Positions 1 through 45,525 of a stretch of 64,000 nt of DNA are shown here, piece by piece (the stretch's first letter is position 1; each line of letters begins with the position of its first letter). A program made the position numbers and the translations under genes. A model generated the notes under the pieces. It ran no database searches and was not told the DNA's origin. It saw nothing but the letters and a program-made list of their open reading frames with translations. Origin of the DNA: an uncultured Candidatus Saccharibacteria bacterium (lineage in GTDB: Bacteria; Patescibacteriota; Minisyncoccia; Phycocordibacterales; XYD1-FULL-46-19); assembly GCA_964639285.1 (NCBI GenBank), contig CAZXCI010000001.1:219757-283756 (forward strand), written 5' to 3'.

Positions 1-155
1 TTGGCGATAGACCAGAAGACTGTGTCTAAGGTGATGAGAGCAAAAAGAATATTGGTAACATTTCTTCGATCGTGGAGATAAGTTATAATTCCAAGGTAAA
101 TAACCAAGAAGCTTGGAATGATCGTCAAAAACAAATCGACATAGCTTGAAACCAT
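1..155 (-). CDS. Partial CDS giving the N-terminus of a membrane protein (MVSSYVDLFLTIIPSFLVIYLGIITYLHDRR...); the gene continues beyond the window edge
   Basis: ATG at 153-155 on the minus strand and an open frame running to position 1; the N-terminus is hydrophobic. Confidence 0.3.
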   Translation of the reverse strand, partial: MVSSYVDLFLTIIPSFLVIYLGIITYLHDRRNVTNILFALITLDTVFWSIA

Positions 156-236: not shown

Positions 237-683
237 TTAGATATCCTCTTTTTTGACCAATTCTTCGACAACAAGAAAAAGTAGGTCCTTTTTGTAAAAC
301 GGGGCCTTATTTGTCCCATTAAGTATATCTGTCACAAAACTTTGCATTGTTCCGTTGGTTGATATTTGAGTATAATATTGAGCAAGTTCTACTTCAGGCC
401 AGTCCGTAATTTTATCAATTAAGACTTTAGTTCTTTCTAGACTTTTTGTCCAAGAATATTTATTCTTCTGCAGACCTCGAATCTTGGGCAACAATTTATC
501 ATTTGACACATCATTCATTAAGGTTATTCCCATATCAAATTGACTTGCCTTTTTTAGATTAAAGTCATCTTTGAAAGTGACCCCTTCGTTATTCAAGAGA
601 CTCAAAAGGTCTTCTTTAGAGATAACTTTCGTTAAAAAAATCTCGATGTAGGAATTTTCCAGATTAAATTTTTCGTTTATCAT
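237..683 (-). CDS. Hypothetical protein, 148 aa
   Basis: ORF with no recognisable motif; lies downstream of the ThiF/nitroreductase/ANL operon on the same strand. Confidence 0.4.
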   Translation of the reverse strand: MINEKFNLENSYIEIFLTKVISKEDLLSLLNNEGVTFKDDFNLKKASQFDMGITLMNDVSNDKLLPKIRGLQKNKYSWTKSLERTKVLIDKITDWPEVELAQYYTQISTNGTMQSFVTDILNGTNKAPFYKKDLLFLVVEELVKKEDI

Positions 684-744: not shown

Positions 745-1044
745 ATGATTAATCAAAAAATTAAACGATTTAATGATCTGGTGTCTCTGATAATGTCTTC
801 TATCAAAAAGGGTGACGATAAACAGGCTCGATTAATTTTTGATAAAGAGTTGCGACCAAACTTTGGCGAAGCGGTATGGATCGGCAGTAGCCCCTTAAGG
901 CCTCTTGCTTTTTTCTATTGTGAAATGGACGATTATCTTAACAATGAGGGAGCTAAAATTTTGGGGGTTTCAAGTAAAGGAAAAATTTTAGATTTATATG
1001 AGAGTGAATACAAAGAAGAATTTGCTAAACTTGCGGGTGATTAG
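745..1044 (+). CDS. Hypothetical protein, 99 aa
   Basis: ORF only. Confidence 0.3.
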   Translation: MINQKIKRFNDLVSLIMSSIKKGDDKQARLIFDKELRPNFGEAVWIGSSPLRPLAFFYCEMDDYLNNEGAKILGVSSKGKILDLYESEYKEEFAKLAGD

Positions 1045-1082: not shown

Positions 1083-1301
1083 TTATTTGTTCCCGCTACG
1101 ATCACCTGAATTTTCTCCTCCGCCATACTGCGAGTATTCGCCAGTAGACGTGTTTAGGTTGAAACTTTCATGAACGTGTCCGCCACCACCAGTGTTGGTA
1201 TAACGGTCTGCGGTAATCCTGTCTTGATCCTCCTTACTTTGACGAACTCTAGTTGTCTGCCCATCACTTGAGCTGTTGAATAACCGTTCGAACAATCCCA
1301 T
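1083..1301 (-). CDS. Small Gly/Ser/Thr/Tyr-rich protein of 72 aa (…TNTGGGGHVHESFNLNTSTGEYSQYGGGENSGDRSGNK)
   Basis: ORF preceded by AGAGAGG, a Shine-Dalgarno-like sequence; low-complexity Gly-rich C-terminal half. Confidence 0.45.
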   Translation of the reverse strand: MGLFERLFNSSSDGQTTRVRQSKEDQDRITADRYTNTGGGGHVHESFNLNTSTGEYSQYGGGENSGDRSGNK

Positions 1302-1517
1302 GACAACCTCTCTTTCTGACCCCTTGGGTCATTATCACCAGACTTATTTCTGATGATGTCTAATTTCATTATGATGTTATGAAGACTGTTGTCTATATCT
1401 AACAACATGGGCTGAAAAAGGCTTTTAAATAGGGTTTAAGTAAGGGGTGGTTTGACAAAAGAGGTAAATTTTGTTAAATTTGTTGGATAGTAACAACAAT
1501 TTAGATATCGCAAAAAA

Positions 1518-2312
1518 ATGACTATCCTATCTAATAATATATTGGTTAAAAATTTGGTCGAATATGGCTTAAGCGACAAAGAAGCTAAGATATATTTGGC
1601 TTTGTTGAGACTCGAAGTTAGTGTGGTCAACGAAGTAGCTAAAACGGCGGGAGTTAATCGTAGCTCAGCTTATGTTGTCCTTGAAGCGCTTAAAGAAAAA
1701 GGTTTGGTTAGTGTTTCGCATGATAAAAAAATTCAACACTATATTGCCACTTCGCCTGAGGCCCTCCTCTACTCTGCCGAGAATCTTGCTCAAAAACAAG
1801 AGAATATTAAGAACAAAATTGCTGATATCGTGCCAGAATTGAAGGCTCTTCATAAGGATACTAAACAGAAACCCAGGGTTATGGTCTACGAAGGTGAAAA
1901 AGGAATTATGAATGCCTTAAGCTGTACCCTAGGAAGCAAAGAAAAGAAGATTCGTGTTCTCTCTTCAAGTGAACAAGTCTCTGAGCTGATGATTGGCTAT
2001 ACAGTAAAAAGATTTGAAAAGGGTATAAAAATGATGGGGATTCATCCTGATGGCGAAATCGCTAAAATGCTAATTTCTAAATCTCCTAAAAACTTTGACG
2101 AATTAGCTCTAATTTCTGCTAAAGATTACAAATTTTCCGCGGACATTGCTATTTTTGACGATAAAATTGGATATATATCAAATAAACAAAAAGGTATCTC
2201 TTTTATTATCGAGAGTAGAGACATGGCGGAAGCAATGAAAACAATTTTCGATTTAGCCTGGAAAGAAGCAAGACGTGTTGGTTTTAGCGAAAAGGAGTAT
2301 CAAAAAGATTGA
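1518..2312 (+). CDS. TrmB-family transcriptional regulator
   Basis: N-terminal helix-turn-helix LVEYGLSDKEAKIYLALLRLEVSVVNEVAKTAGVNRSSAYVVLEALKEKGLV matches the TrmB winged-helix pattern. Confidence 0.7.
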   Translation: MTILSNNILVKNLVEYGLSDKEAKIYLALLRLEVSVVNEVAKTAGVNRSSAYVVLEALKEKGLVSVSHDKKIQHYIATSPEALLYSAENLAQKQENIKNKIADIVPELKALHKDTKQKPRVMVYEGEKGIMNALSCTLGSKEKKIRVLSSSEQVSELMIGYTVKRFEKGIKMMGIHPDGEIAKMLISKSPKNFDELALISAKDYKFSADIAIFDDKIGYISNKQKGISFIIESRDMAEAMKTIFDLAWKEARRVGFSEKEYQKD

Positions 2313-2313
2313 T

Positions 2314-3432
2314 CTAACAAAGACTCTCTCTTATTTGGTCAAGTTCCAAACGATAACGCCCGGTCGGCATATCTTCAGAGATTAAGATTTTTCGGGCGAA
2401 GTAAGCTAGGGTAGCCCCACGCAGGAAAGTGGCTTCGGCTAGTTGTGGGATACCGGCGAGATCGACACCGACGCGGTCGAAGGATTCGCGTAATTCTTTA
2501 ACTAGATTCTCGCTTCCCATAAAATCGCGAGCCAGGGCCATCTTCTCACGAAAGTCGGTTGTTGGTCCAACTTGAGCGATGCGATCGATTACCTCTTGCT
2601 TAAGTTTCCCATTTAGGAGAGTGATAGAATTATCTAAATCGTAGCGTTCGACATCGATGATGATGTTAGAGCCATTGCCAGTGACCATTAAGACGGGAAT
2701 TTTGAGCCCCCTTGCTTTTTCTCGGATGGCAATTTTAAGCTTGAGGTTGTCCATTTCTTCAATCAGCAGATCAATTTTGGAGTCAGTCAGGAATTTGTCC
2801 AAGTTATCTGGTTGGATACCTTGGTCATAAAGTTCGAGATTGACGTAGGGATTAATTTCGTAAATTTCGCGGGCGGTGATCGTCGTTTTATCTAGTTCAA
2901 CATCAGAAAGGCCTGCGCGAAAACGATTAAGGTTGGAGAGAGAAAGAATATCGAGATCGGCTAACTTCAAGTTCTCGAAGCCCTCTTGCGCTAGACAGAT
3001 AGCTCCGGGGTTACCAACATTTAGACCAGCTATGCCAATTGTTAGTTTTTTTATTGCATTTTGTTCAGCACTAGAAACAAAACTATTATTGCGAGAGAGA
3101 CGAAGTAATTCGTAGTCATCCTTAGGCAGGGCATGTATCAATTTTTCGTTCCATGGGTAGTATATCCAGTTGCCATCTTCAATCTGGCTAGCCCCTTCTT
3201 TAACTGATGAGTTGGCCATTTTATCTAAAATTAGAGTGGGATTATTCACTAAAGCTAACTCTCCACTTTGTTCTCCGTAATTATCAACAACCTCTTTTAT
3301 GCTACCCTGCTCAAACATTGTTAACAATTTTGCTTGGTCCGCGGGATCTGTTAGTTTAAAAATTTGTGGCTTACTATTAGGCTGAGAATGACGAGTTTTA
3401 GCCTTGAGATAATCAATTAATTGAGAGTTCAT
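2314..3432 (-). CDS. ThiF/MoeB/E1-like adenylyltransferase-fold protein with an N-terminal extension of about 100 aa
   Basis: Rossmann motif IGIAGLNVGNPGAICLAQEGF...LADLDILSLSNLNRF matches the ThiF-family pattern; this is the last gene of a 3-gene minus-strand operon. Confidence 0.65.
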   Translation of the reverse strand: MNSQLIDYLKAKTRHSQPNSKPQIFKLTDPADQAKLLTMFEQGSIKEVVDNYGEQSGELALVNNPTLILDKMANSSVKEGASQIEDGNWIYYPWNEKLIHALPKDDYELLRLSRNNSFVSSAEQNAIKKLTIGIAGLNVGNPGAICLAQEGFENLKLADLDILSLSNLNRFRAGLSDVELDKTTITAREIYEINPYVNLELYDQGIQPDNLDKFLTDSKIDLLIEEMDNLKLKIAIREKARGLKIPVLMVTGNGSNIIIDVERYDLDNSITLLNGKLKQEVIDRIAQVGPTTDFREKMALARDFMGSENLVKELRESFDRVGVDLAGIPQLAEATFLRGATLAYFARKILISEDMPTGRYRLELDQIRESLC

Positions 3433-3445
3433 AATTATTGAGTAA

Positions 3446-4492
3446 TTAAATTAATAATTTGTCTTTTAATTTATGTCGTGGGGTGGTTCGAAATTGCTTG
3501 TCCATTCGACCTGCGGCAAAAACGAATTGAGGGTCGTCCTGAGATCCAATAATCTTCTTAACTTCTTGATAGAAATTACCGATTTCAATGGAGGCAAGAT
3601 AAATCGAAGTGTTATAACCATCATTTTGTAATTCGAGCATTAGACGTTCAATTAACCGGCCCAGCTTGATCCAAGTTTCGGCTCGTGGCTTCGGTGCAGT
3701 AAAAATAAAAACAAAGGGTGAAGTTGAGACGCTCAAGTAATTAATTTTGCCCATAATTGGGCCCATGTTGAAAAATCGAATTACTTTTGATACAAAAAGA
3801 GATATCGGTCCGGGCATATTCATTGAATAGCCGATCATTCCATCATTTCTTCGACTATAGTTACTGATAATCCATCTGGACATTTCTCGCCTAAAGTTTT
3901 TGTCGGAGTGGGCCAAACGCATTCCTTGCTGAGTTAAACTGGCAATCTTTTCAATTTCGGCGGGGGTGGTAATAATCTTAACGTTAATTCCATCTTCGGA
4001 CCAGCGACTGATTAAATCTTTAAGTTTTGCAATGTAAGACTGATCAATTTTTTCTCTAATGAAAGGCCCACGGGCGTTGGTGCGATGTAGAATTGTTTTA
4101 ATGAGTGATGACAAATCTTTCTTGTCTTCCTCGTCTTCAAATGAAACTGTCGCAATCAAATTACCCACATTGTCGTCAGCAGAATAAATGATTTCTGTTT
4201 TTTGGCCATAATACTTGGCGGCAATGACGAGGTTTTCAATTGCGCAGCCGATACTGATGTATAGATCACGGCTTTTAGGGTCGGCATACTTCAGTTTAAG
4301 TTGAGGATCAAAATAAACGGAACAAATATTTTTTTGTACTTTGAATAACCAAGGCTGAGTATTATGGGTTGAGGGAGCTAAAATAGTATAACGTAGTAAA
4401 AATTTAATTTTCTCTTCGATATTAGTTAGACCAAAAAATAAGTCCTTCTCTTGGACCAATTGATTACGCATTTTATCTAATCTTGCTTCCAT
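3446..4492 (-). CDS. Nitroreductase-family (FMN-dependent dehydrogenase-fold) protein, 348 aa
   Basis: APSTHNTQPWLF motif, the NQPW nitroreductase signature; larger than a canonical NfsB-type nitroreductase; SagB-like is not excluded. Confidence 0.65.
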   Translation of the reverse strand: MEARLDKMRNQLVQEKDLFFGLTNIEEKIKFLLRYTILAPSTHNTQPWLFKVQKNICSVYFDPQLKLKYADPKSRDLYISIGCAIENLVIAAKYYGQKTEIIYSADDNVGNLIATVSFEDEEDKKDLSSLIKTILHRTNARGPFIREKIDQSYIAKLKDLISRWSEDGINVKIITTPAEIEKIASLTQQGMRLAHSDKNFRREMSRWIISNYSRRNDGMIGYSMNMPGPISLFVSKVIRFFNMGPIMGKINYLSVSTSPFVFIFTAPKPRAETWIKLGRLIERLMLELQNDGYNTSIYLASIEIGNFYQEVKKIIGSQDDPQFVFAAGRMDKQFRTTPRHKLKDKLLI

Positions 4493-4523
4493 CAGAGAAT
4501 TATAGCTTTTTTCCTCTATTCTG

Positions 4524-6065
4524 TTAATCGTGAGACTCTTTAATTACCCACTTTTGTTTAATCCCCGGCTGAAAGAAAGTAACATCCTCAGCTGGCCATA
4601 AGACAACCTTAGGTAAGGCTCGCTTGCCGATGAAGCGATAAAGTTCTCGGTACTCGGAACTTTTTTTAAGTAAACCTTCGAGAATTGCTCTCTGGACCTT
4701 GTAACGAAGCTTGGGGCTGGCTTTAACCCCTTTTTTCATCTCGACGTTGATTTCGAGATATTGGTTTTGATGTTTATCGAATTTTGTACACATCGCCATC
4801 TTGCCCGTGCAAAACTTGGAGCTTTCTGTTTGGAGGAGTCCATCTTTGATAAATTCTGGGAAAATATTTAGGCCATAAAGAGTAGTAGATAGATCTTTGC
4901 GCTCATAGACATAGACGAAAGGTAGCTCGTTTTTTTGATCTGCAATCCCAGCCTTGCTCATTTCCTTTTTTATATCAAGACCATTATTTTTGAATTTCTC
5001 TTTTAAATCAGCAAAGCTTATTACTCCGCCGTTGTCGCCGATGGCATAACGAACAAGGGGGATAGTATTATCTCCGGTCAGTATTATTTCTCCTTGATCC
5101 TCATCAAAGCTTATGAAGGATGGGTTGAATTGGGTGAAGGTCGGGGTTTTTTCGATATTGCCAAAAATTTCTCCAAAGAGCTTCTTATTTTTAATTGCCT
5201 TCTCTCTTGCGAGGATTGAAAGTGGAGTTTCTGAAGCCATTGCGCCGATATCTGCGCTGCCATAGATGTTAATGGTTTCGCGGTACTTGTTGTTGAGGCC
5301 AACGTGTTCGGCCAAATAATCACGGAAACTCTCGGTGAAAGATTCTGCGGCGAAAGAAAATTTAATTTTTAGTTTCTTCAAATTAATCCCGTTGGCAATT
5401 GCTTCGTCAATTACATCTTTAACAAATGGAGGGTAGCCGCAGATAATTGTCTGGTCAAATAGTGGCGACAACTTACTAAAGGCACTAAAGATTTCCTTTT
5501 TATTTAATCCTGGAGTGATGATAGAAATTTTATTTTTTGTTCTATCCCGAGTCATTTCATAACCGCTAAAGGTAATAAGTCCTCCAATCCAAACCCCCAT
5601 GCCAAAAGCTATGATAACAAGAGTAGACTCCTTGGCGGAGGAAAAACTGTCCAAAAAACGTTCGTGGATAATAGAGCCTTGCCAGTCAAGCTTTGCTTCG
5701 CGAGGGAAATAAAAAGGTTCACCTGTCGAACCGGTGGTTGAGGTATAAGTAGAGTTTTTTTGGGGTTCTCCGTTCCAGAAGAGTTCGCGGTAAGGATAGT
5801 AACGAAGATAATTCTTCTTATTTATAACGGGGACTTTTTGGAAATCGTTCCAAGTTTTTATTTTTTTATGGTTGATTTTGTGTCGGGCCAAAAATTTTTT
5901 ATAAGCAGGGACTTTTTCGGCGGCACGATGAAAAAGGCTTAAGGCTCGAACCTCTCTTTCTCTCATCCAAAAATTACTTGTTCTGGACGAGATAAGGGCA
6001 CTCATTTTTTCTACTTCTTTGTTTGCCTCTTGCATATATTCTAATACCGTTACAGTATACCACAA
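4524..6065 (-). CDS. ANL-superfamily adenylate-forming enzyme, similar to phenylacetate-CoA ligase PaaK and coenzyme F390 synthetase
   Basis: YTSTTGSTGEPFYFP matches the T(S/T)G(S/T)TG.P AMP-binding P-loop; first gene of the 3-gene operon. Confidence 0.6.
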   Translation of the reverse strand: MWYTVTVLEYMQEANKEVEKMSALISSRTSNFWMREREVRALSLFHRAAEKVPAYKKFLARHKINHKKIKTWNDFQKVPVINKKNYLRYYPYRELFWNGEPQKNSTYTSTTGSTGEPFYFPREAKLDWQGSIIHERFLDSFSSAKESTLVIIAFGMGVWIGGLITFSGYEMTRDRTKNKISIITPGLNKKEIFSAFSKLSPLFDQTIICGYPPFVKDVIDEAIANGINLKKLKIKFSFAAESFTESFRDYLAEHVGLNNKYRETINIYGSADIGAMASETPLSILAREKAIKNKKLFGEIFGNIEKTPTFTQFNPSFISFDEDQGEIILTGDNTIPLVRYAIGDNGGVISFADLKEKFKNNGLDIKKEMSKAGIADQKNELPFVYVYERKDLSTTLYGLNIFPEFIKDGLLQTESSKFCTGKMAMCTKFDKHQNQYLEINVEMKKGVKASPKLRYKVQRAILEGLLKKSSEYRELYRFIGKRALPKVVLWPAEDVTFFQPGIKQKWVIKESHD

Positions 6066-6127
6066 AGAAAAAATAAAGTAAAGTGTCTGGACTATGCCTG
6101 GCTCCAGACTGATGATATAATAGCTTA

Positions 6128-7168
6128 ATGCCTAAAAATAAGAAAGAGTTCAGGCTTGACCTAAACGAGGGCCAGCGGAGTTTTATTAACAAGAAAATGC
6201 TTGGAGGAATATTGGACCCTAGTGATTGGCACCAATATGCTCGAAAGTCAGACCTTGCTACTCTTCAAAAAAATACAGCTAAGCGTCTTGGTGTTTTGTC
6301 AGAAAATCTAGTTTTTATGAATGGGACTTATCATGCCCTTGATACCCTTTTTAATTTCTTAGTTCGCGAGGATGAGTCAGTTGTTATTCCTGTCCCTACC
6401 TTTGCTTTCTATCCTAAGTTTGAGAAATATCGTCGGATCACCTTTAAGAAAATTAAGTATGGCGAAAATCTACATTTACCAGTCACAAGAATTCTCTCTG
6501 CTCTTGATGTTAAAACAAAATTAGTTTATTTGGTTAACCCTCATAATCCTCTTGGTTCTGTCGCTAGCTCTAACGAATTAGAAATTATAATAAAGGCAGC
6601 TAAGTCAAAAGGGGCTTATGTCGTTGTCGACGAAGTCTACTCGGAATTTTGGGGCAAAAGCGTTGTCCAGTTAATCAATAAACATAAAAATCTTATTATT
6701 CTTCGGTCTTTTTCTAAGGTTGGTCTAAGCGGTTTGAAGCTTGGATTTACTGTCTCAAATGAGAAGCTGGCTCAGAAAATTGAGGAGATGCGTGGTGATA
6801 TCTATAATGTAAACAAGGCCTCAATCTCTATTGTCTCAAAAGTTTTTTCTGGTCGCGAGCAAATAAATAGGTACGTTGATGATATCAAAGAAGCTCGTTC
6901 TGGGCTCATTAAATTTTTGAATGAACGTAAGGTTTTGGTTTTGCCTAGTGAGACAAATTTCGTTACGGCTAAATTCTATCGACAAGAAGAGCTTGTTTCT
7001 AGGCTAAAAGGGAAAGGTGTTTGGGTCAAGGACTTGACCCATTATCCCGATGCCCCTCGTTGGCTTAAGGGTTATGTCCGCATTACTGTCCCGGGGACTA
7101 AAGATTTACCAACTTTTTTAGCTATTTTGGGTTCTGTTATGGACGATTTCAAAAAATCTTCCCTCTAG
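6128..7168 (+). CDS. PLP-dependent class I/II aminotransferase (histidinol-phosphate aminotransferase-like)
   Basis: LNEG, NPHNPLG, VVDEVYSEF and SFSKVGLSGLKLGF (Lys-containing PLP site) motifs. Confidence 0.7.
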   Translation: MPKNKKEFRLDLNEGQRSFINKKMLGGILDPSDWHQYARKSDLATLQKNTAKRLGVLSENLVFMNGTYHALDTLFNFLVREDESVVIPVPTFAFYPKFEKYRRITFKKIKYGENLHLPVTRILSALDVKTKLVYLVNPHNPLGSVASSNELEIIIKAAKSKGAYVVVDEVYSEFWGKSVVQLINKHKNLIILRSFSKVGLSGLKLGFTVSNEKLAQKIEEMRGDIYNVNKASISIVSKVFSGREQINRYVDDIKEARSGLIKFLNERKVLVLPSETNFVTAKFYRQEELVSRLKGKGVWVKDLTHYPDAPRWLKGYVRITVPGTKDLPTFLAILGSVMDDFKKSSL

Positions 7169-7201: not shown

Positions 7202-8422
7202 ATGACAAATATAATCGAAGAACTTAAAGCTCGCGGGCTCGTTGCGCAAGAGACGCATGACGGTAAATTAGGAGAAATTTTGGCGAGAGAGAAAATGGCT
7301 TTCTTTGCCGGCTTTGATCCTTCGGCGGATAGTTTGCATATTGGGAGTTTGGCGCTAATTGTTACAATGACTCGCCTTGCGGGAGCGGGGCACAAGCCGA
7401 TTTTTTTAATGGGTGGAGCGACGGGTCTAATCGGCGATCCGAGTGGAAAAATAGAAACCAGAAAAATGCTTGGTGAAGCCGATGTCGAGCGGAACCTTCA
7501 GTCTATTAAAAAACAAATTGGAAAAATTCTGGGAGATCAAGAACTTCTTTTTGTTAACAATTTTGACTGGCTCAAGAAATTTAATTATCTAGAATTTTTG
7601 CGTAATTACGGCCCCCTTTTTAAGGTTAACGAGATGGTCAAAAGTGAGACCTATCGTGAACGCCTAGAGAAAGAATATGGTCTTACTTTTCTTGAGTTTA
7701 ATTACCTGATTCTTCAGGCGATAGACTATCTTCATCTTTTTGATACCGAAGGTTGTCGTCTGCAAATTGGTGGGAGTGATCAATGGGGCAATATTCTGGC
7801 TGGGGTGGAGCTTGTTCGTCGAGAGCGCCAGACCGAAGCTTATGCTTTTACCATTCCTTTGATCGAGCGTTCGGATGGTAAGAAGATGGGTAAGTCTGAA
7901 GCCGGAGCTGTTTGGCTCGATGCCAAGAAGACTTCCCCTTTCGATTTCTATCAATACTGGGTTAATGTTGACGATAAGGATGTTGGCCGTTTCTTGAAAA
8001 TTTTTACTTTTCTCTCACTTGAAGAAATTGCCGAGCTTGATAAGCTGAGTGGTTCTGAAATTACAGAAGCTAAAGACATCTTAGCTTATGAGGTCACGAA
8101 GTTTGTCCATGGAGAAGAAGAAGCTGAAGAAGCCAAACGTCTTTCTTATGAATTGTTCAGCTTGAGAGGTGCCGGTATTAATTATTTACCTCCAATTAAG
8201 GTCTCTCTTCCTTTGGGAGGCTTGAATATTGTTGATTTTCTTGTTAGTACAGGAATAAGTGATCTCAATTCCAAAAGGAAAGTTCGTGAGTTAATATCAT
8301 CTGGCGGTATTTATCTTGATCTCGAACCAGTAAAGGATTTAAATCTTGTGGTGAAAAAATCAGATTGGACAGTGCTTCTTCGTGTTGGGAAGAAGAAATA
8401 TTATAGAATAGAGGCGAATTAA
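7202..8422 (+). CDS. tyrS: Tyrosyl-tRNA synthetase
   Basis: GFDPSADSLHIGS (HIGH-like) and KMGKS (KMSKS-like) motifs, with a C-terminal S4-like domain. Confidence 0.85.
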   Translation: MTNIIEELKARGLVAQETHDGKLGEILAREKMAFFAGFDPSADSLHIGSLALIVTMTRLAGAGHKPIFLMGGATGLIGDPSGKIETRKMLGEADVERNLQSIKKQIGKILGDQELLFVNNFDWLKKFNYLEFLRNYGPLFKVNEMVKSETYRERLEKEYGLTFLEFNYLILQAIDYLHLFDTEGCRLQIGGSDQWGNILAGVELVRRERQTEAYAFTIPLIERSDGKKMGKSEAGAVWLDAKKTSPFDFYQYWVNVDDKDVGRFLKIFTFLSLEEIAELDKLSGSEITEAKDILAYEVTKFVHGEEEAEEAKRLSYELFSLRGAGINYLPPIKVSLPLGGLNIVDFLVSTGISDLNSKRKVRELISSGGIYLDLEPVKDLNLVVKKSDWTVLLRVGKKKYYRIEAN

Positions 8423-42402: not shown

Positions 42403-42485
42403 AAGTTTTGATTTTAAAGATGTTAAGTAATAATTTAAAATCTTAAGTAATACCGTGCTCGCACTGCGAAGCTTCAGCGAAGCAG

Positions 42486-42559
42486 TGGACCGCACCGGGA
42501 TCGAACCGGTTACCTCCCGCTTGCAAAGCGGGTGCTCTAGCCAGATGAGCTAGCGGCCC
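42486..42559 (-). tRNA. tRNA-Ala (anticodon TGC)
   Basis: Cloverleaf GGGCCGC...CCCGC-TTTGCAA-GCGGG...TTCGATC...GCGGTCC-A; Ala-identity G3:U70 pair present. Confidence 0.85.
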
Positions 42560-43836: not shown

Positions 43837-43906
43837 GAGCCCCCCCCTATCAAGAATCCCGCAAAGGGCGACATCAATGAAAGATGCCGCCCTTTATTTA
43901 TATTTG

Positions 43907-43979
43907 TGGACCATACCGGAATCGAACCGGTCACCTCTCCCATGCCATGGGAGCGCTCTACCAAATGAGCTAATGGCCC
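43907..43979 (-). tRNA. tRNA-Ala (anticodon GGC)
   Basis: GGGCCAT...CTCCC-ATGGCAT-GGGAG...TTCGATT...ATGGTCC-A; G3:U70 present. Confidence 0.85.
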
Positions 43980-44199: not shown

Positions 44200-45525
44200 T
44201 TACCAAAACTTCCAGAACGGTTTCTTCGCTGGTGAGCTCGAAGCCGTTGAGGTCGAAGGAATTTCTTCGCCAGTGACAGGATCCACAATCCCCGTCCCCG
44301 CTGTTGGAGCTTTTGTCCCCAAGACTTGAGAAGCCTGTGGATGCTTAAGCTCATAAATCTTAATGGCAAAGTGATTTTTTCTTTTCTTCAGAAGGCGCAA
44401 CCTCTTTTCTACCGGTGTTAAATTTGACCTGTCTCTAACCTGAGAAGAAATCTTCTCTGTCGAGGTCCCCAAAACTTGACCCAAAACTAGGTTAACTGAT
44501 CCGTTCGGTCCCCAACCTGGAGCAAAACCACTACTATGACTACCCGAACTTGGGGCTTCAATCTTTACTTCTCCACCTTGGGCAACCTCCTGATTACCAA
44601 CATAATCAATACCGTAAACTTTTAGCAAATAGGTGCCGGGTGTTGTTAGGGTAAAGGGCCCAGCATAAACAGTATAATTAGCCCCGTCATCGGTTGAATA
44701 ATAAATTTTATCAAGACCACTTTCGCTATCGACACTATCCAAGGTGACAACAACGCTATTGGTCGTAGGAGTGCCAAAGGAATAAGGGGCTGAACCAGAC
44801 TCAGCACTGATGGTCGTCACAGGGGCTGTCGCATCAACAGTTACTGCCTGATCACCACTTTGTGAATGTTGAAAGTTGTCGTAAGCCTGAACAATAATCT
44901 TTGTAATCATCTGATCTGAAGTGTCAACATCATTGAGGGTACAACTTGTTACCGTAGAACCCCAATAACTAACAGTCCCATTGTCATAACCAAACTCGCA
45001 GTCTCTAATCCCGGTTCCGGCATCAGAAACGTCCACACTTAAGTCCGAAGAAACTCCAATATAAGTTGTCGATCCTACAATCCGACTTGGAGTAACAGTA
45101 ATGGCTCCAACAACGGGAACGTCATTATCGACAATAATCGTCTTGCTAGTGTCAGTGGCCGTAGTACTCGCACTAGTGTAGACAACCTGCACAGTATAAG
45201 TCCCATCAGCAACGAAATTATTAGAGGAATCCTTCCCGTTCCAAACCCGAGAAAAAGTACTAGAAGCGGCAACATTGTAAAAATGTTTAATCGCAACGTC
45301 AGAGCTGTTGCGGAGATACATATCAATATCAACCGGACCTGAGAACTCAAGATCAATACTTGCACTTTTTGCAAGAAGCCCGGAAGTGTCCTCAGGAGCA
45401 ATGACAGGATTATCAATAGTGAAGACATCCAAGGTCGCCGGAGTGATCGCGCTAGCCGGTAAAGCCAAGAAGAAAAGTCCTAAAATCAAGCTGAGCTTGA
45501 GACTAAATAAAAGTTTTTTATCCAT
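44200..45525 (-). CDS. Secreted or cell-surface Thr/Ser-rich protein with a signal peptide
   Basis: Signal peptide LSLILGLFFLALPASA; repetitive Thr/Ser/Val-rich, beta-rich composition. Confidence 0.5.
   Translation of the reverse strand: MDKKLLFSLKLSLILGLFFLALPASAITPATLDVFTIDNPVIAPEDTSGLLAKSASIDLEFSGPVDIDMYLRNSSDVAIKHFYNVAASSTFSRVWNGKDSSNNFVADGTYTVQVVYTSASTTATDTSKTIIVDNDVPVVGAITVTPSRIVGSTTYIGVSSDLSVDVSDAGTGIRDCEFGYDNGTVSYWGSTVTSCTLNDVDTSDQMITKIIVQAYDNFQHSQSGDQAVTVDATAPVTTISAESGSAPYSFGTPTTNSVVVTLDSVDSESGLDKIYYSTDDGANYTVYAGPFTLTTPGTYLLKVYGIDYVGNQEVAQGGEVKIEAPSSGSHSSGFAPGWGPNGSVNLVLGQVLGTSTEKISSQVRDRSNLTPVEKRLRLLKKRKNHFAIKIYELKHPQASQVLGTKAPTAGTGIVDPVTGEEIPSTSTASSSPAKKPFWKFW

Follow-up and report, generated by a model that had tools for sequence, protein, structure and literature searches.

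Results

Gene Content of the Locus

The window, a 64-kb stretch of DNA from a Patescibacteria bacterium with a tiny genome, contains three closely spaced minus-strand genes, separated by 31 and 13 nt. Their products are an ANL ligase, a flavoenzyme of nitroreductase fold (FDO) and an E1-like protein (Table 1). The ORFs named in an earlier note on this DNA, namely these three and those of the TrmB-family regulator, the aminotransferase and a 72-aa ORF, all exist where it placed them. The mechanical ANL ORF (4524–6065, minus strand) begins at a TTG at 6065, and the gene caller picks the ATG at 6035. The ANL motif YTSTTGSTGEP is present as quoted; the region of the nitroreductase motif quoted as NQPW is also present, but its actual letters are HNTQPW. 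A σ70-like site with a TG extension (6082–6054, minus strand) upstream of ANL points, weakly, to 6036–6127 as the probable promoter region for ANL and the aminotransferase; promoter-like sites are not enriched there (22 versus 17.9 ± 4.3 in shuffles). The aminotransferase matches Pfam Aminotran_1_2 (150.8 bits) and TIGR01141 hisC (199 bits, under the cut-off of 276).

Table 1. Coordinates of the operon genes and flanking features in the window
Feature	Position	Strand	Remarks
HisKA_7TM sensor histidine kinase, first 51 codons	1..155	−	Runs off window start; full length 581 aa
72-aa Gly-rich ORF	1083..1301	−	ORF present
TrmB-family HTH regulator, candidate local regulator	1518..2312	+	Pfam TrmB 59.3 bits; convergent with E1, 1-nt gap
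E1-like protein, putative ThiF/E1-like adenylating cyclase	2314..3432	−	372 aa; family-specific N-terminal domain ~1–112
FDO, nitroreductase superfamily (Acg/TyzC/TrzS type)	3446..4492	−	348 aa
ANL ligase, PaaK family	4524..6035	−	503 aa from ATG at 6035
Intergenic region ANL/aminotransferase, probable promoter region for both	6036..6127	.	σ70-like site
HisC-like class I/II aminotransferase	6128..7168	+	Divergent from operon

The translation of the kinase fragment at the window start is identical to the start of the kinase in locus L081; the complete gene in L081 and L082 encodes HisKA_7TM, HisKA and HATPase_c, and in the source genome the kinase lies mostly just beyond the window edge. A lineage-specific insertion of ~2.1 kb separates it from the E1 gene. 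The 72-aa ORF, which the earlier note had offered as a possible precursor, sits in this insertion and was not called by the gene caller. It is absent from all 80 related loci, even from relatives with a 69–85% identical E1, and a search of 5.8 billion proteins gave just one homologue, nearly identical to it; a role as RiPP precursor is not supported.

Conservation of the Three Genes and Their Partners

In 76 of 80 Patescibacteria species-representative loci, the E1, FDO and ANL genes lie side by side on the same strand, in at least 10 gene orders and with a median inner gap of 3 nt; in the four exceptions (L019, L020, L047, L049), the locus is short or E1 sits close to the end of the contig. 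Because of this adjacency, the grouping is not due to chance. In the reverse test, anchored on ANL, ThiF was found in 4/4 loci and the nitroreductase in 3/4, with no FDO near the ANL of L088. The co-occurrence in related genomes on which the earlier note had staked its proposal is thus strongly borne out, and E1, FDO and ANL constitute a conserved functional module.

A Trp/Leu/Phe-type ELFV amino-acid dehydrogenase, whose best model is the ScyB Trp dehydrogenase (232 bits), adjoins the cluster in 39 of the 80 loci and a HisC-like aminotransferase in 12; the two never occur together in one locus and usually lie directly upstream of ANL. Of the 73 loci whose contig extends far enough downstream, 71 have a HisKA_7TM histidine kinase there, at a median gap of 10 nt; over all 80 loci the count is likewise 71.

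Relationship of E1 and FDO to Oxazolone Synthases

The Pfam ThiF match of the E1-like protein spans only residues 114–249. The N-terminal extension noted earlier is therefore real, at ~110 aa, and its fold is predicted with high confidence (model pLDDT 92.8); it shows no sequence similarity to solved structures or Pfam families. The best model for E1 is NCBIfam NF005901, the “Rv1355c family” (279 bits; next-best ThiF model, 71 bits), and BLASTP aligns it with a Rhodococcus Rv1355c-family fusion at 31% identity (E 3e-50), N-terminal extension included. The invariant ThiF adenylation residues include D228, which aligns with the Asp of the EECDS motif of the Rhodococcus fusion; the corresponding residue of Mycobacterium smegmatis TrzS, D217, is essential in that enzyme (PMC12856293). 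In Streptomyces, a GNAT gene is adjacent or fused to ThiF of the same clade. An N-acylating enzyme is therefore a recurrent partner of this clade, a position that ANL fills in CPR.

FDO matches the C-terminal half of NF005901 (74.8 bits) and of the proteobacterial-type di-domain model PRK14851 (90 bits; E1, 55 bits), and is 22% identical (E 3e-8) to the C-terminal FDO half of the Rhodococcus fusion. HMM scores place it nearer the generic Acg-family FMN oxidoreductase model, NF047509 (190.8 bits; cut-off 199), than the TrzS FDO half, and in the PDB it matches MsAcg (2ymv, E 3.7e-7). It has in common with TrzS-type FDO the motif APSxxNxQPW, R137, R141, G82, G218 and G278. It is a candidate Cα/Cβ desaturase. 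Natural E1–FDO fusions occur in three CPR loci (L053, L070 and L074), and that of L074 matches the Rv1355c model over both domains (positions 10–644, 396 bits). E1, FDO and the CPR fusion all score below the curated cut-off of this equivalog model, 476 bits.

The ANL Ligase

ANL has no Pfam hit, AMP-binding included, and scores 49.5 bits against NCBIfam PaaK (cut-off 646); its profile finds PaaK in the PDB at 36 bits. Foldseek searches with the predicted model (pLDDT 86.4) gave as best matches PaaK1/2 (E 1.9e-20), BT_0428, NatL2, AjiA1, ClxA and HCL. ANL shares its two-domain fold with PaaK1/2, BT_0428, NatL2/AjiA1/ClxA and 2-hydroxyisobutyryl-CoA ligase (Foldseek E values between 1e-20 and 1e-14) and has the P-loop, YG(S/T)x(D/E), RYxxGD hinge and C-terminal Lys, but it is only ~15–17% identical, ~70 residues longer and a separate family. 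It has at least 2,942 homologues, every named one from Patescibacteria, and its invariant residues include T100, G102-S-T-G105, Y258-G259, Y330, G333-D334 and K493.

Neither the window nor 84 CPR loci contain a linked acyltransferase or N-acyl amino acid synthase, and tblastn of the 64-kb window with two actinobacterial acyltransferase partners found no acyltransferase. Thus, a defining feature of the known oxazolone pathway is missing. The searchable literature holds no description of the ANL-containing combination, in keeping with the earlier view that this is not a textbook cluster.

Discussion

On sequence grounds, the E1+FDO pair is a split homologue of the N-acyl-amino-acid oxazolone synthases TrzS (Rv1355c), TyzB/TyzC and OxzB. 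TrzS, also annotated “MoeY,” constitutes with TrzA the N-acyl tryptazolone synthase of Mycobacterium, Rhodococcus and relatives, and in vitro carries out ATP-dependent cyclisation and then O2-dependent desaturation of N-acyl-Trp (Kleetz et al. 2025, PMC12856293). TyzA/TyzB/TyzC of Mycobacterium tuberculosis and OxzA/OxzB of Pseudoalteromonas rubra form N-acyl tyrazolone pathways (Grigg et al. 2023, PMC10404671; de Rond et al., bioRxiv 10.1101/2020.06.11.147165), in which TyzB/TyzC and OxzB perform the same two reactions on N-acyl-Tyr (PMC10404671; PMC12596934). Pathways of this recently discovered type yield oxazolones, which are reactive. Every known natural N-acyl oxazolone comes from aromatic amino acids, and all characterized pathways use an acyl-CoA and an N-acyl amino acid synthase.

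By both HMM and BLAST, the window E1 is closest to TrzS. In both systems an Acg-like FDO accompanies a ThiF-like cyclase whose N-terminal region and “GLxVGx” nucleotide loop are shared; the catalytic Asp and the FDO motifs are kept, and fusions exist in CPR too. In contrast to TrzS, however, the window E1 and FDO are separate genes of low identity in a Patescibacteria host, TrzA, an acyl-CoA-dependent N-acyltransferase, is replaced by a strictly linked PaaK-family ligase, and the partners further include a 7TM histidine kinase and an amino-acid dehydrogenase or aminotransferase. The Tyz system resembles the window in placing a stand-alone ThiF (TyzB) beside a stand-alone FDO (TyzC), and ATP-dependent cyclisation and flavin-dependent desaturation of an N-acyl aromatic amino acid would be shared with both Tyz and Oxz. 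Both fall in a ThiF subcluster other than that of TrzS, are always accompanied by an N-acyl amino acid synthase and lack an ANL ligase.

We propose, with a probability of about one-half, that the operon encodes the N-acyl-amino-acid oxazolone (azlactone) pathway in a Patescibacteria form, in which ANL would produce an N-acyl amino acid for E1 to cyclise and FDO to desaturate. Specifically, ANL would adenylate a carboxylic acid and use it to acylate an amino acid, probably an aromatic or hydrophobic one, on its amino group; this putative role is drawn from its position and from precedent in distant relatives. By homology to TrzS/TyzB/OxzB and in view of its conserved adenylation residues, the E1-like enzyme would then adenylate the α-carboxylate of the N-acyl amino acid, and attack by the amide oxygen would close the 5(4H)-oxazolone ring. 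FDO, in complex or in concert with the E1-like enzyme, would desaturate Cα/Cβ via FMN, as its homologues do, to yield a conjugated alkylidene/arylidene oxazolone or, after hydrolysis, an N-acyl dehydroamino acid. Since the placement of aminotransferase and dehydrogenase genes is mutually exclusive and ANL-adjacent, the HisC-like aminotransferase here, or the ELFV dehydrogenase in most relatives, may interconvert amino acid and 2-oxo acid and so feed the ligase.

Several observations weigh against parts of this model. The hallmark synthase is absent, identities to the TrzS type are low (E1 31%, FDO 22%) with scores below the cut-off, FDO is nearer the generic Acg-family model, ANL resembles PaaK only remotely (36–49 bits), and L088 has ANL with no FDO nearby. 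Many Patescibacteria are regarded as anaerobic fermenters; the characterized FDOs require O2, and another electron acceptor might therefore be needed.

The absent synthase also bears on an alternative that we regard as unlikely, in which E1 and FDO carry out the same oxazolone chemistry while ANL is an ordinary acyl- or aryl-CoA ligase that supplies acyl-CoA to an N-acyltransferase encoded elsewhere in the genome or activates the pathway product. The nearest sequence and structural relatives of ANL are indeed phenylacetate-CoA ligases, and the universal use of acyl-CoA by characterized oxazolone pathways favors such a role. However, no acyltransferase is linked to the cluster in the 84 CPR loci or present in the window, ANL linkage is as tight as that of FDO, and the PaaK fold also includes CoA-independent enzymes: NatL2, AjiA1 and ClxA form ester or amide bonds directly from the acyl-adenylate. 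Moreover, fatty-acid metabolism and a large part of CoA metabolism are usually missing from CPR genomes.

A different small-molecule pathway with the same enzyme logic appears rather improbable. ANL might couple an amino acid to a second amino acid or to a 2-oxo acid, giving a precursor of a diketopiperazine or other ring that E1 closes and FDO desaturates in the manner of the albonoursin cyclic dipeptide oxidase; alternatively, the enzymes might run a cycle in which amino acids become 2-oxo acids by way of dehydro intermediates open to hydrolysis. The dehydrogenase or aminotransferase almost always beside ANL suggests that the ligase substrate is an amino acid or 2-oxo acid. An M19 dipeptidase, an S9 peptidase and an FDO–α/β-hydrolase fusion occur sporadically in clusters, and M19 enzymes are classical dehydropeptidases. 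Nitroreductase-fold enzymes are also known to desaturate diketopiperazines (de Rond preprint). These hydrolase partners are nevertheless rare (1–3 loci each), a dipeptide substrate has no direct support, and the closest characterized homologue of both E1 and FDO acts on N-acyl amino acids to give oxazolones.

A housekeeping role, whether sulfur-carrier activation for thiamin or molybdopterin (ThiF/MoeB), tRNA ct6A formation (TcdA) or a ubiquitin-like or defence E1, is very improbable. In many genomes the cluster lies among DnaK/DnaJ, TyrRS, AspRS and PrfB, some sources annotate homologues as TcdA or MoeB/ThiF, and TcdA likewise forms an oxazolone ring; yet these neighbors are kept in at most 23 loci, versus 71–76 for module genes. 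E1 falls far below the cut-offs for ThiF (71 versus 159 bits), MoeB (45 versus 266) and TcdA (51 versus 304), has no CxxC motifs and has no conserved ThiS/MoaD/Ubl or E2/JAB gene nearby, and PADLOC gave weak E1-core hits only (≤32 bits). E1 is thus distinct from housekeeping MoeB/ThiF, as the earlier note had supposed.

The analogy to MccB, PaaA and TOMM “ocin-ThiF-like” enzymes, with the E1 extension as a peptide clamp and the Gly/Ser/Thr/Tyr-rich 72-aa ORF as its substrate, is largely refuted and hardly credible: the ORF is an orphan, the clusters hold neither a conserved small ORF family nor YcaO, the extension has no RRE/clamp match by sequence and no detected structural match and is common to TrzS-type enzymes, and the nearest functional relatives act on small molecules.

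Relative to the known pathway, the proposed oxazolone route would be new in its ATP-dependent ligase, in place of the usual acyltransferase, and in the near-constant downstream membrane sensor kinase. Because this kinase almost always follows the operon, the product may be a signal; gene linkage suggests that the product or a precursor could be sensed by the co-operonic 7TM sensor histidine kinase, although the link could instead reflect co-regulation. Seven of 81 loci have a TrmB-family gene within or beside the cluster, each time on the opposite strand; in L089, a TrmB gene shares the strand of the cluster.

A conserved three-gene module in Patescibacteria

The earlier note had described an operon encoding an adenylate-forming ligase (ANL), a nitroreductase-fold protein (below FDO, for flavin-dependent oxidase), and a ThiF-like protein with an N-terminal extension (E1), and every ORF that it named is present at its coordinates. 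The intergenic gaps of the operon are 31 nt and, between the FDO and E1 genes, 13 nt. Housekeeping genes (DnaK, DnaJ, PyrD, TyrRS, LeuRS, AlaRS, and UvrABC) surround the module, the GC content is ~36–46% in the window, and the genome belongs to the Parcubacteria group of the Patescibacteria (CPR), its nearest named relatives being Candidatus Vogelbacteria. The Pfam ThiF match is confined to residues 114–249 of E1, indicating that the N-terminal extension is real, and the extension folds confidently in an AlphaFold model (overall pLDDT 92.8), with only a 71–80 loop being weak. The middle protein shows two weak Pfam nitroreductase matches, and the ANL protein has no Pfam match.

Eighty homologous loci, essentially all from Patescibacteria, were fetched from species-representative genomes with an alignment of the E1 family, and further partners were found by clustering all ORFs of the neighborhoods. 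In 76 of these loci the E1, FDO, and ANL genes are grouped on a single strand; the exceptions (L019, L020, L047, and L049) are short loci or have the E1 gene close to a contig end. The earlier reading of the locus as a conserved, nontextbook biosynthetic module was right. At least 10 gene orders occur, such as ANL-NTR-E1, NTR-E1-ANL, NTR-E1-DH-ANL, DH-ANL-E1-NTR, and E1-NTR-ANL (NTR being the FDO and DH a dehydrogenase), with a median inner gap of 3 nt. That adjacency has been kept despite so much rearrangement is strong evidence for functional coupling. In the reverse direction, neighborhoods anchored on four ANL homologs from long contigs contain ThiF in 4/4, a sensor kinase in 4/4, and FDO in 3/4. 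One ANL-anchored locus, L088, has the order ThiF-DH-ANL-kinase with no nitroreductase within 6 kb; its pathway may end with the saturated ring, or its FDO gene may lie elsewhere. The cluster is also tolerant of insertions: in L089 a GmrSD-type (type IV restriction) gene separates ThiF from FDO, and L090 has acquired a methyltransferase gene and a UCP032817-like gene on the strand opposite to the cluster.

Coordinates of the module, its surroundings, and features of related loci (L handles)
Feature	Location	Strand	Remark
ANL	window 4524-6065	-	ORF; gene caller prefers ATG at 6035 (503 aa)
FDO	window 3446-4492	-	nitroreductase-fold protein, 348 aa
E1-like protein	window 2314-3432	-	372 aa
HisC-like aminotransferase	window 6128-7168	+
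TrmB-family regulator	window 1518-2312	+	convergent with E1
HisKA_7TM kinase	window 1-155	-	first 51 codons
Insertion ORF	window 237-683	-
Insertion ORF	window 745-1044	+
Insertion ORF	window 1083-1301	-	72 aa
Insertion ORF	window 1154-1408	-
TyrRS	window 7202-8422		406 aa, SYY C-terminal domain
tRNA-synt_1b protein	L081:15020-16024		334 aa, after kinase
Two tRNA-Ala genes	window 42485-42559; 43906-43979	-	anticodons TGC, GGC
ORF without Pfam match	window 44200-45525		441 aa
Streptomyces ThiF	L085:6962-8760		adjoins GNAT
Streptomyces ThiF-GNAT fusion	L087:6167-9081		followed by KAS III
ThiF-DH-ANL-kinase	L088:3812-9088
GmrSD-type insertion	L089:8608-10419
Methyltransferase and UCP032817-like insertion	L090:8709-9870		opposite to cluster
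FDO–hydrolase fusion	L078:11038-12939		Abhydrolase_1, 83 bits
~309-aa protein	L018:11106-12035		between cluster and kinase
M19/S9 peptidase loci	L003:12600-13541; L025:11171-12106; L001:11165-13201; L040:7039-8829; L045:3350-5152

E1 and FDO are related to oxazolone synthases

E1 matches the NCBIfam model NF005901 (“Rv1355c family protein”) with 279 bits over residues 13–367 (model 4–338), the next-best NCBIfam model being a ThiF at 71 bits. The FDO matches the C-terminal half of NF005901 (74.8 bits) and also that of the PRK14851 di-domain model. Since the two proteins match parts of di-domain models, they constitute a split version of a ThiF–nitroreductase fusion. Natural E1–FDO fusions are present in three Patescibacteria loci (L053, L070, and L074), and the L074 fusion matches the Rv1355c model over both domains with 396 bits. 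E1 (279), FDO (74.8), and this fusion (396) all miss the NF005901 equivalog cut-off of 476 bits, and by these profile scores the pair is a clade related to Rv1355c, not an equivalog. The same relationship is seen in BLASTP comparisons with an annotated Rhodococcus Rv1355c-family reference protein recovered from a plasmid collection: E1 shows 31% identity (E 3e-50; residues 21–366 versus 8–332), and the FDO shows 22% identity to its C-terminal half (E 3e-8). The E1 alignment takes in the N-terminal extension, so that the extension is common to this clade of enzymes; E1 is homologous to the cyclase domain of the oxazolone synthases along its whole length, the part that precedes the Rossmann core included. 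The FDO also falls just under the cut-off of the Acg-family model NF047509 (190.8 versus 199 bits). The FDO half of the L074 fusion scores 200.8 bits against that model and a bona fide TrzS-type FDO 117.5 bits, and the model is generic for FDOs.

Rv1355c is TrzS, in which the ThiF-like domain cyclizes N-acyl-tryptophan with ATP and the FDO domain then desaturates the ring with O2, yielding an N-acyl “tryptazolone” (PMC12856293). TyzB and TyzC of Mycobacterium tuberculosis and OxzB of Pseudoalteromonas produce tyrazolones (PMC10404671; review PMC12596934; de Rond preprint). In these oxazolone synthases (TrzS, TyzB + TyzC, and OxzB) the FDO is fused to or adjoins ThiF, and the two likewise adjoin in the window module. 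Residues R114, D159, D161, N169, R170, K182, and D228 of E1 are invariant among 50 homologs, leaving the adenylation site intact. D228, in the motif EEMDN, aligns with the Asp of EECDS in the Rhodococcus fusion and would be the equivalent of D217 in Msmeg TrzS, the mutation of which (D217A) abolished cyclase activity (PMC12856293). The FDO and TrzS-type FDOs have in common the motif APSxxNxQPW, R137/R141, and three Gly residues. The E1–FDO core adds a new, distantly related member to an enzyme kind already known. The nearest solved structure to E1 is that of AclA from Tenacibaculum (9egb), for which no relevant paper was found in the literature.

An adenylate-forming ligase in place of the N-acylating enzyme

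An N-acyl amino acid synthase is present in every described oxazolone or N-acyl-dehydrotyrosine cluster (PMC12856293, PMC10404671, de Rond preprint) and has been termed a “hallmark protein” in one study. This synthase (OxzA/TyzA/TrzA/NasY), a trait of the characterized clusters, is absent from the window module, and no such family is found among the conserved neighbors of the loci. Nor is an acyltransferase hidden in the edge families fam29, fam65, and fam69 or the in-cluster inserts, which comprise VKOR, a membrane protein, an unknown protein, M19 and S9 peptidases, a HIT protein, GTP cyclohydrolase II, and cytidylate kinase. When the upstream protein of Rhodococcus and the Streptomyces GNAT served as queries, tblastn gave no match in the window or in any of 84 loci. 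Streptomyces linear plasmids encode a ThiF from this clade (NF005901, 422 bits), which adjoins a GNAT in L085; in L087 it carries a fused GNAT domain and KAS III comes next. FDO is present in neither locus, and these look like further uncharacterized pathway variants. That ThiF is next to or fused with GNAT here indicates that members of the clade repeatedly occur together with an N-acylating enzyme, and in Patescibacteria the position of that enzyme is held by the ANL.

The ANL family has at least 2,942 matches; the named ones are all Patescibacteria, and none carries a Pfam domain. The predicted structure (pLDDT 86.4) has the two-domain PaaK fold (Foldseek E 1.9e-20) with P-loop, hinge, and C-terminal catalytic Lys, which places the protein in the PaaK-like branch of the ANL superfamily at the level of fold; TM scores to PaaK1/2 and BT_0428 are 0.53–0.61 (query-normalized) and 0.62–0.69 (target-normalized). 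Invariant residues are T100, G102-S-T-G105, Y258-G259, Y330, G333-D334, and K493. The protein scores 49.5 bits against TIGR02155, the model of the phenylacetate-CoA ligase PaaK, short of the equivalog cut-off of 646, and the family profile scores 36 bits against PaaK2; judged by these sequence scores (36–49 bits), the ANL is only remotely PaaK-like. Its next structural neighbors include NatL2, AjiA1, and ClxA, which in benzoxazole biosynthesis join an acyl-adenylate straight to a nucleophile with no need for CoA. The PaaK fold, these neighbors, and the N-acylating position together suggest the ANL as the enzyme that forms the substrate’s amide bond. A PaaK-like enzyme might instead merely make an acyl-CoA for an unlinked transferase; this is less likely, given that no linked transferase was found.

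Alternative amino acid-converting enzymes

One of two unrelated enzymes adjoins the cluster in many loci. An ELFV-family amino acid dehydrogenase of ~350 aa is found there in 39/80 loci; among NCBIfam models it scores best against ScyB tryptophan dehydrogenase (232 bits, below cut-off), not against glutamate dehydrogenase. A HisC-like aminotransferase, the type present in the window, adjoins the cluster in 12/80. The two are never in the same locus, and whichever is present usually lies directly upstream of the ANL gene. Both interconvert amino acids and 2-oxo acids, and their occurrence as alternatives suggests that a conversion of this kind supplies the ligase. Aromatic amino acids are the source of all known natural N-acyl oxazolones (PMC12856293), which fits a Trp/Phe/Leu-type dehydrogenase and a HisC-like (aromatic-type) transaminase.

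A linked sensor kinase

The gene for a HisKA_7TM sensor histidine kinase follows the cluster in 71/80 loci, and 7 of the remaining 9 have no contig left, so that the kinase is present in 71 of the 73 loci with room for it. The median gap between cluster and kinase is 10 nt, and 12 of the gaps are overlaps. Simple housekeeping synteny is rejected by this close spacing and by the fact that no housekeeping neighbor is kept in more than 23 loci. In the window genome the kinase lies ~2.1 kb past E1, as seen on the identical contig L081. A lineage-specific insertion of ~2.1 kb separates the two, consisting of the TrmB gene and small ORFs (72/84, 99, and 148 aa). The 72-, 99-, and 148-aa ORFs have no homolog in the 80 related loci and no Pfam or NCBIfam match. 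A good Shine-Dalgarno-like sequence, GAGAGG, precedes the 72-aa ORF, but the gene caller chooses instead the 84-aa frame that overlaps it. TrmB-family regulators occur in or beside 7/81 loci on the opposite strand; in L089, a further locus, TrmB shares a strand with the cluster. A scan for promoters and terminators gave counts not above those of shuffles.

In five loci (L018, L022, L035, L049, and L072) a protein of ~309 aa is encoded between cluster and kinase. This protein contains a stretch, FDLGGGG, that resembles motif I of SAM-methyltransferases, and has no Pfam or PDB match; the assignment of fam69 as a methyltransferase, suspected from this motif, was rejected for want of Pfam or PDB support.

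Other readings of the locus

A peptide-modifying (RiPP) role had been entertained on account of the extension of E1 and the Gly/Ser/Thr/Tyr-rich 72-aa ORF, a candidate precursor. This framing fails. The ORF is not called by the gene caller, tblastn detects it in none of the 80 related loci, and a database of 5.8 billion proteins holds a single homolog, itself an orphan (93% identical). Across the loci no conserved small-ORF family accompanies the cluster, and neither a YcaO partner nor any further conserved gene family is found in or beside it (80 loci). The extension is common to a small-molecule enzyme, and a profile of E1 residues 1–112 matches nothing in PDB or Pfam, no RRE or clamp being recognizable by sequence. 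The suggestion that E1 is not a housekeeping MoeB or ThiF held up: the scores lie far below the cut-offs for ThiF, MoeB, and TcdA (71 versus 159, 45 versus 266, and 51 versus 304 bits), the alignment has no CxxC zinc motif, and no sulfur-carrier (ThiS/MoaD) gene is conserved nearby. A defence E1–E2 system was rejected, as PADLOC gave only weak core matches.

Proposed pathway and its significance

Collectively, homology and conserved catalytic residues predict oxazolone chemistry for the module, with ATP-dependent cyclization and FMN-dependent desaturation. The ANL would convert an acid and ATP to an acyl-AMP, whose reaction with an amino acid would yield the N-acyl derivative, a step suggested by linkage. 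E1 would then adenylate the α-carboxylate, allowing the amide oxygen to close the 5(4H)-oxazolone ring, and the FDO, with FMN, would introduce the Cα–Cβ double bond. From linkage, the aminotransferase or dehydrogenase may supply or recycle the amino acid/2-oxo acid pair, and the kinase, from linkage only, may respond to the product or a precursor. Against the oxazolone model count the low identities, the missed equivalog cut-off, and the L088 locus without a nearby FDO; the O2 needed by characterized FDOs is a further caveat. In one relative (L078) the FDO carries a fused C-terminal α/β-hydrolase domain, which could be an oxazolone or ester hydrolase for the pathway product. Genes for M19 “membrane dipeptidases” and S9 prolyl-oligopeptidase-family proteins occur sporadically within or directly after the cluster. 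M19 enzymes are classical dehydropeptidases, and a role in the turnover of N-acyl dehydroamino acids would fit.

Oxazolone synthases were discovered only in 2021–2025, in Proteobacteria, Actinomycetota, and Planctomycetota, and their signaling role is speculation by the respective authors. A related module is now seen conserved across many lineages of Patescibacteria, which have ~1-Mb genomes and very little biosynthetic capacity. Here the substrate appears to be made differently, by an ATP-dependent PaaK-family ligase plus an amino acid dehydrogenase or transaminase, and the module is translationally coupled to a 7TM sensor kinase. It is tempting to view the whole as a Patescibacteria-wide small-molecule signaling circuit, in which a CoA-independent, ligase-dependent synthase draws on scavenged amino or oxo acids to produce an oxazolone or a dehydro-N-acyl amino acid and the cooperonic 7TM receptor histidine kinase senses this product, forming an autoinducer-synthase/receptor pair; we give this about one chance in five. 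Such a pair would possibly be used for cell–cell or symbiont–host communication by ultra-small episymbionts. No papers on ThiF plus nitroreductase in Patescibacteria were found in the searchable literature, nor was the architecture itself, with an ANL for the acyltransferase, alternative dehydrogenase or aminotransferase, an operonic 7TM kinase, and wide distribution in Patescibacteria. The known range of the enzyme family now takes in a further superphylum and a pathway architecture not seen before, and a large ANL family gains a testable function. The purpose of oxazolones becomes experimentally approachable through a synthase–sensor pair whose four or five small soluble genes lend themselves to heterologous expression. 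Routine annotations of these genes (MoeB/ThiF, TcdA, “phenylacetate-CoA ligase,” and “hypothetical”) are also corrected.

Additional observations

In the window genome two class Ib aminoacyl-tRNA synthetase genes flank the module; the shorter type groups with the “TyrRS” family found downstream in many loci. Farther along the window, a 441-aa ORF lies beside two tRNA-Ala genes. The typical Patescibacteria cluster is also present on contigs of MAGs titled “uncultured Gammaproteobacteria” or “Nitrospirae” (L017, L032, L052, L054, L058, L059, L065, L072, and others), titles that are probably taxonomic mislabels or binning errors.
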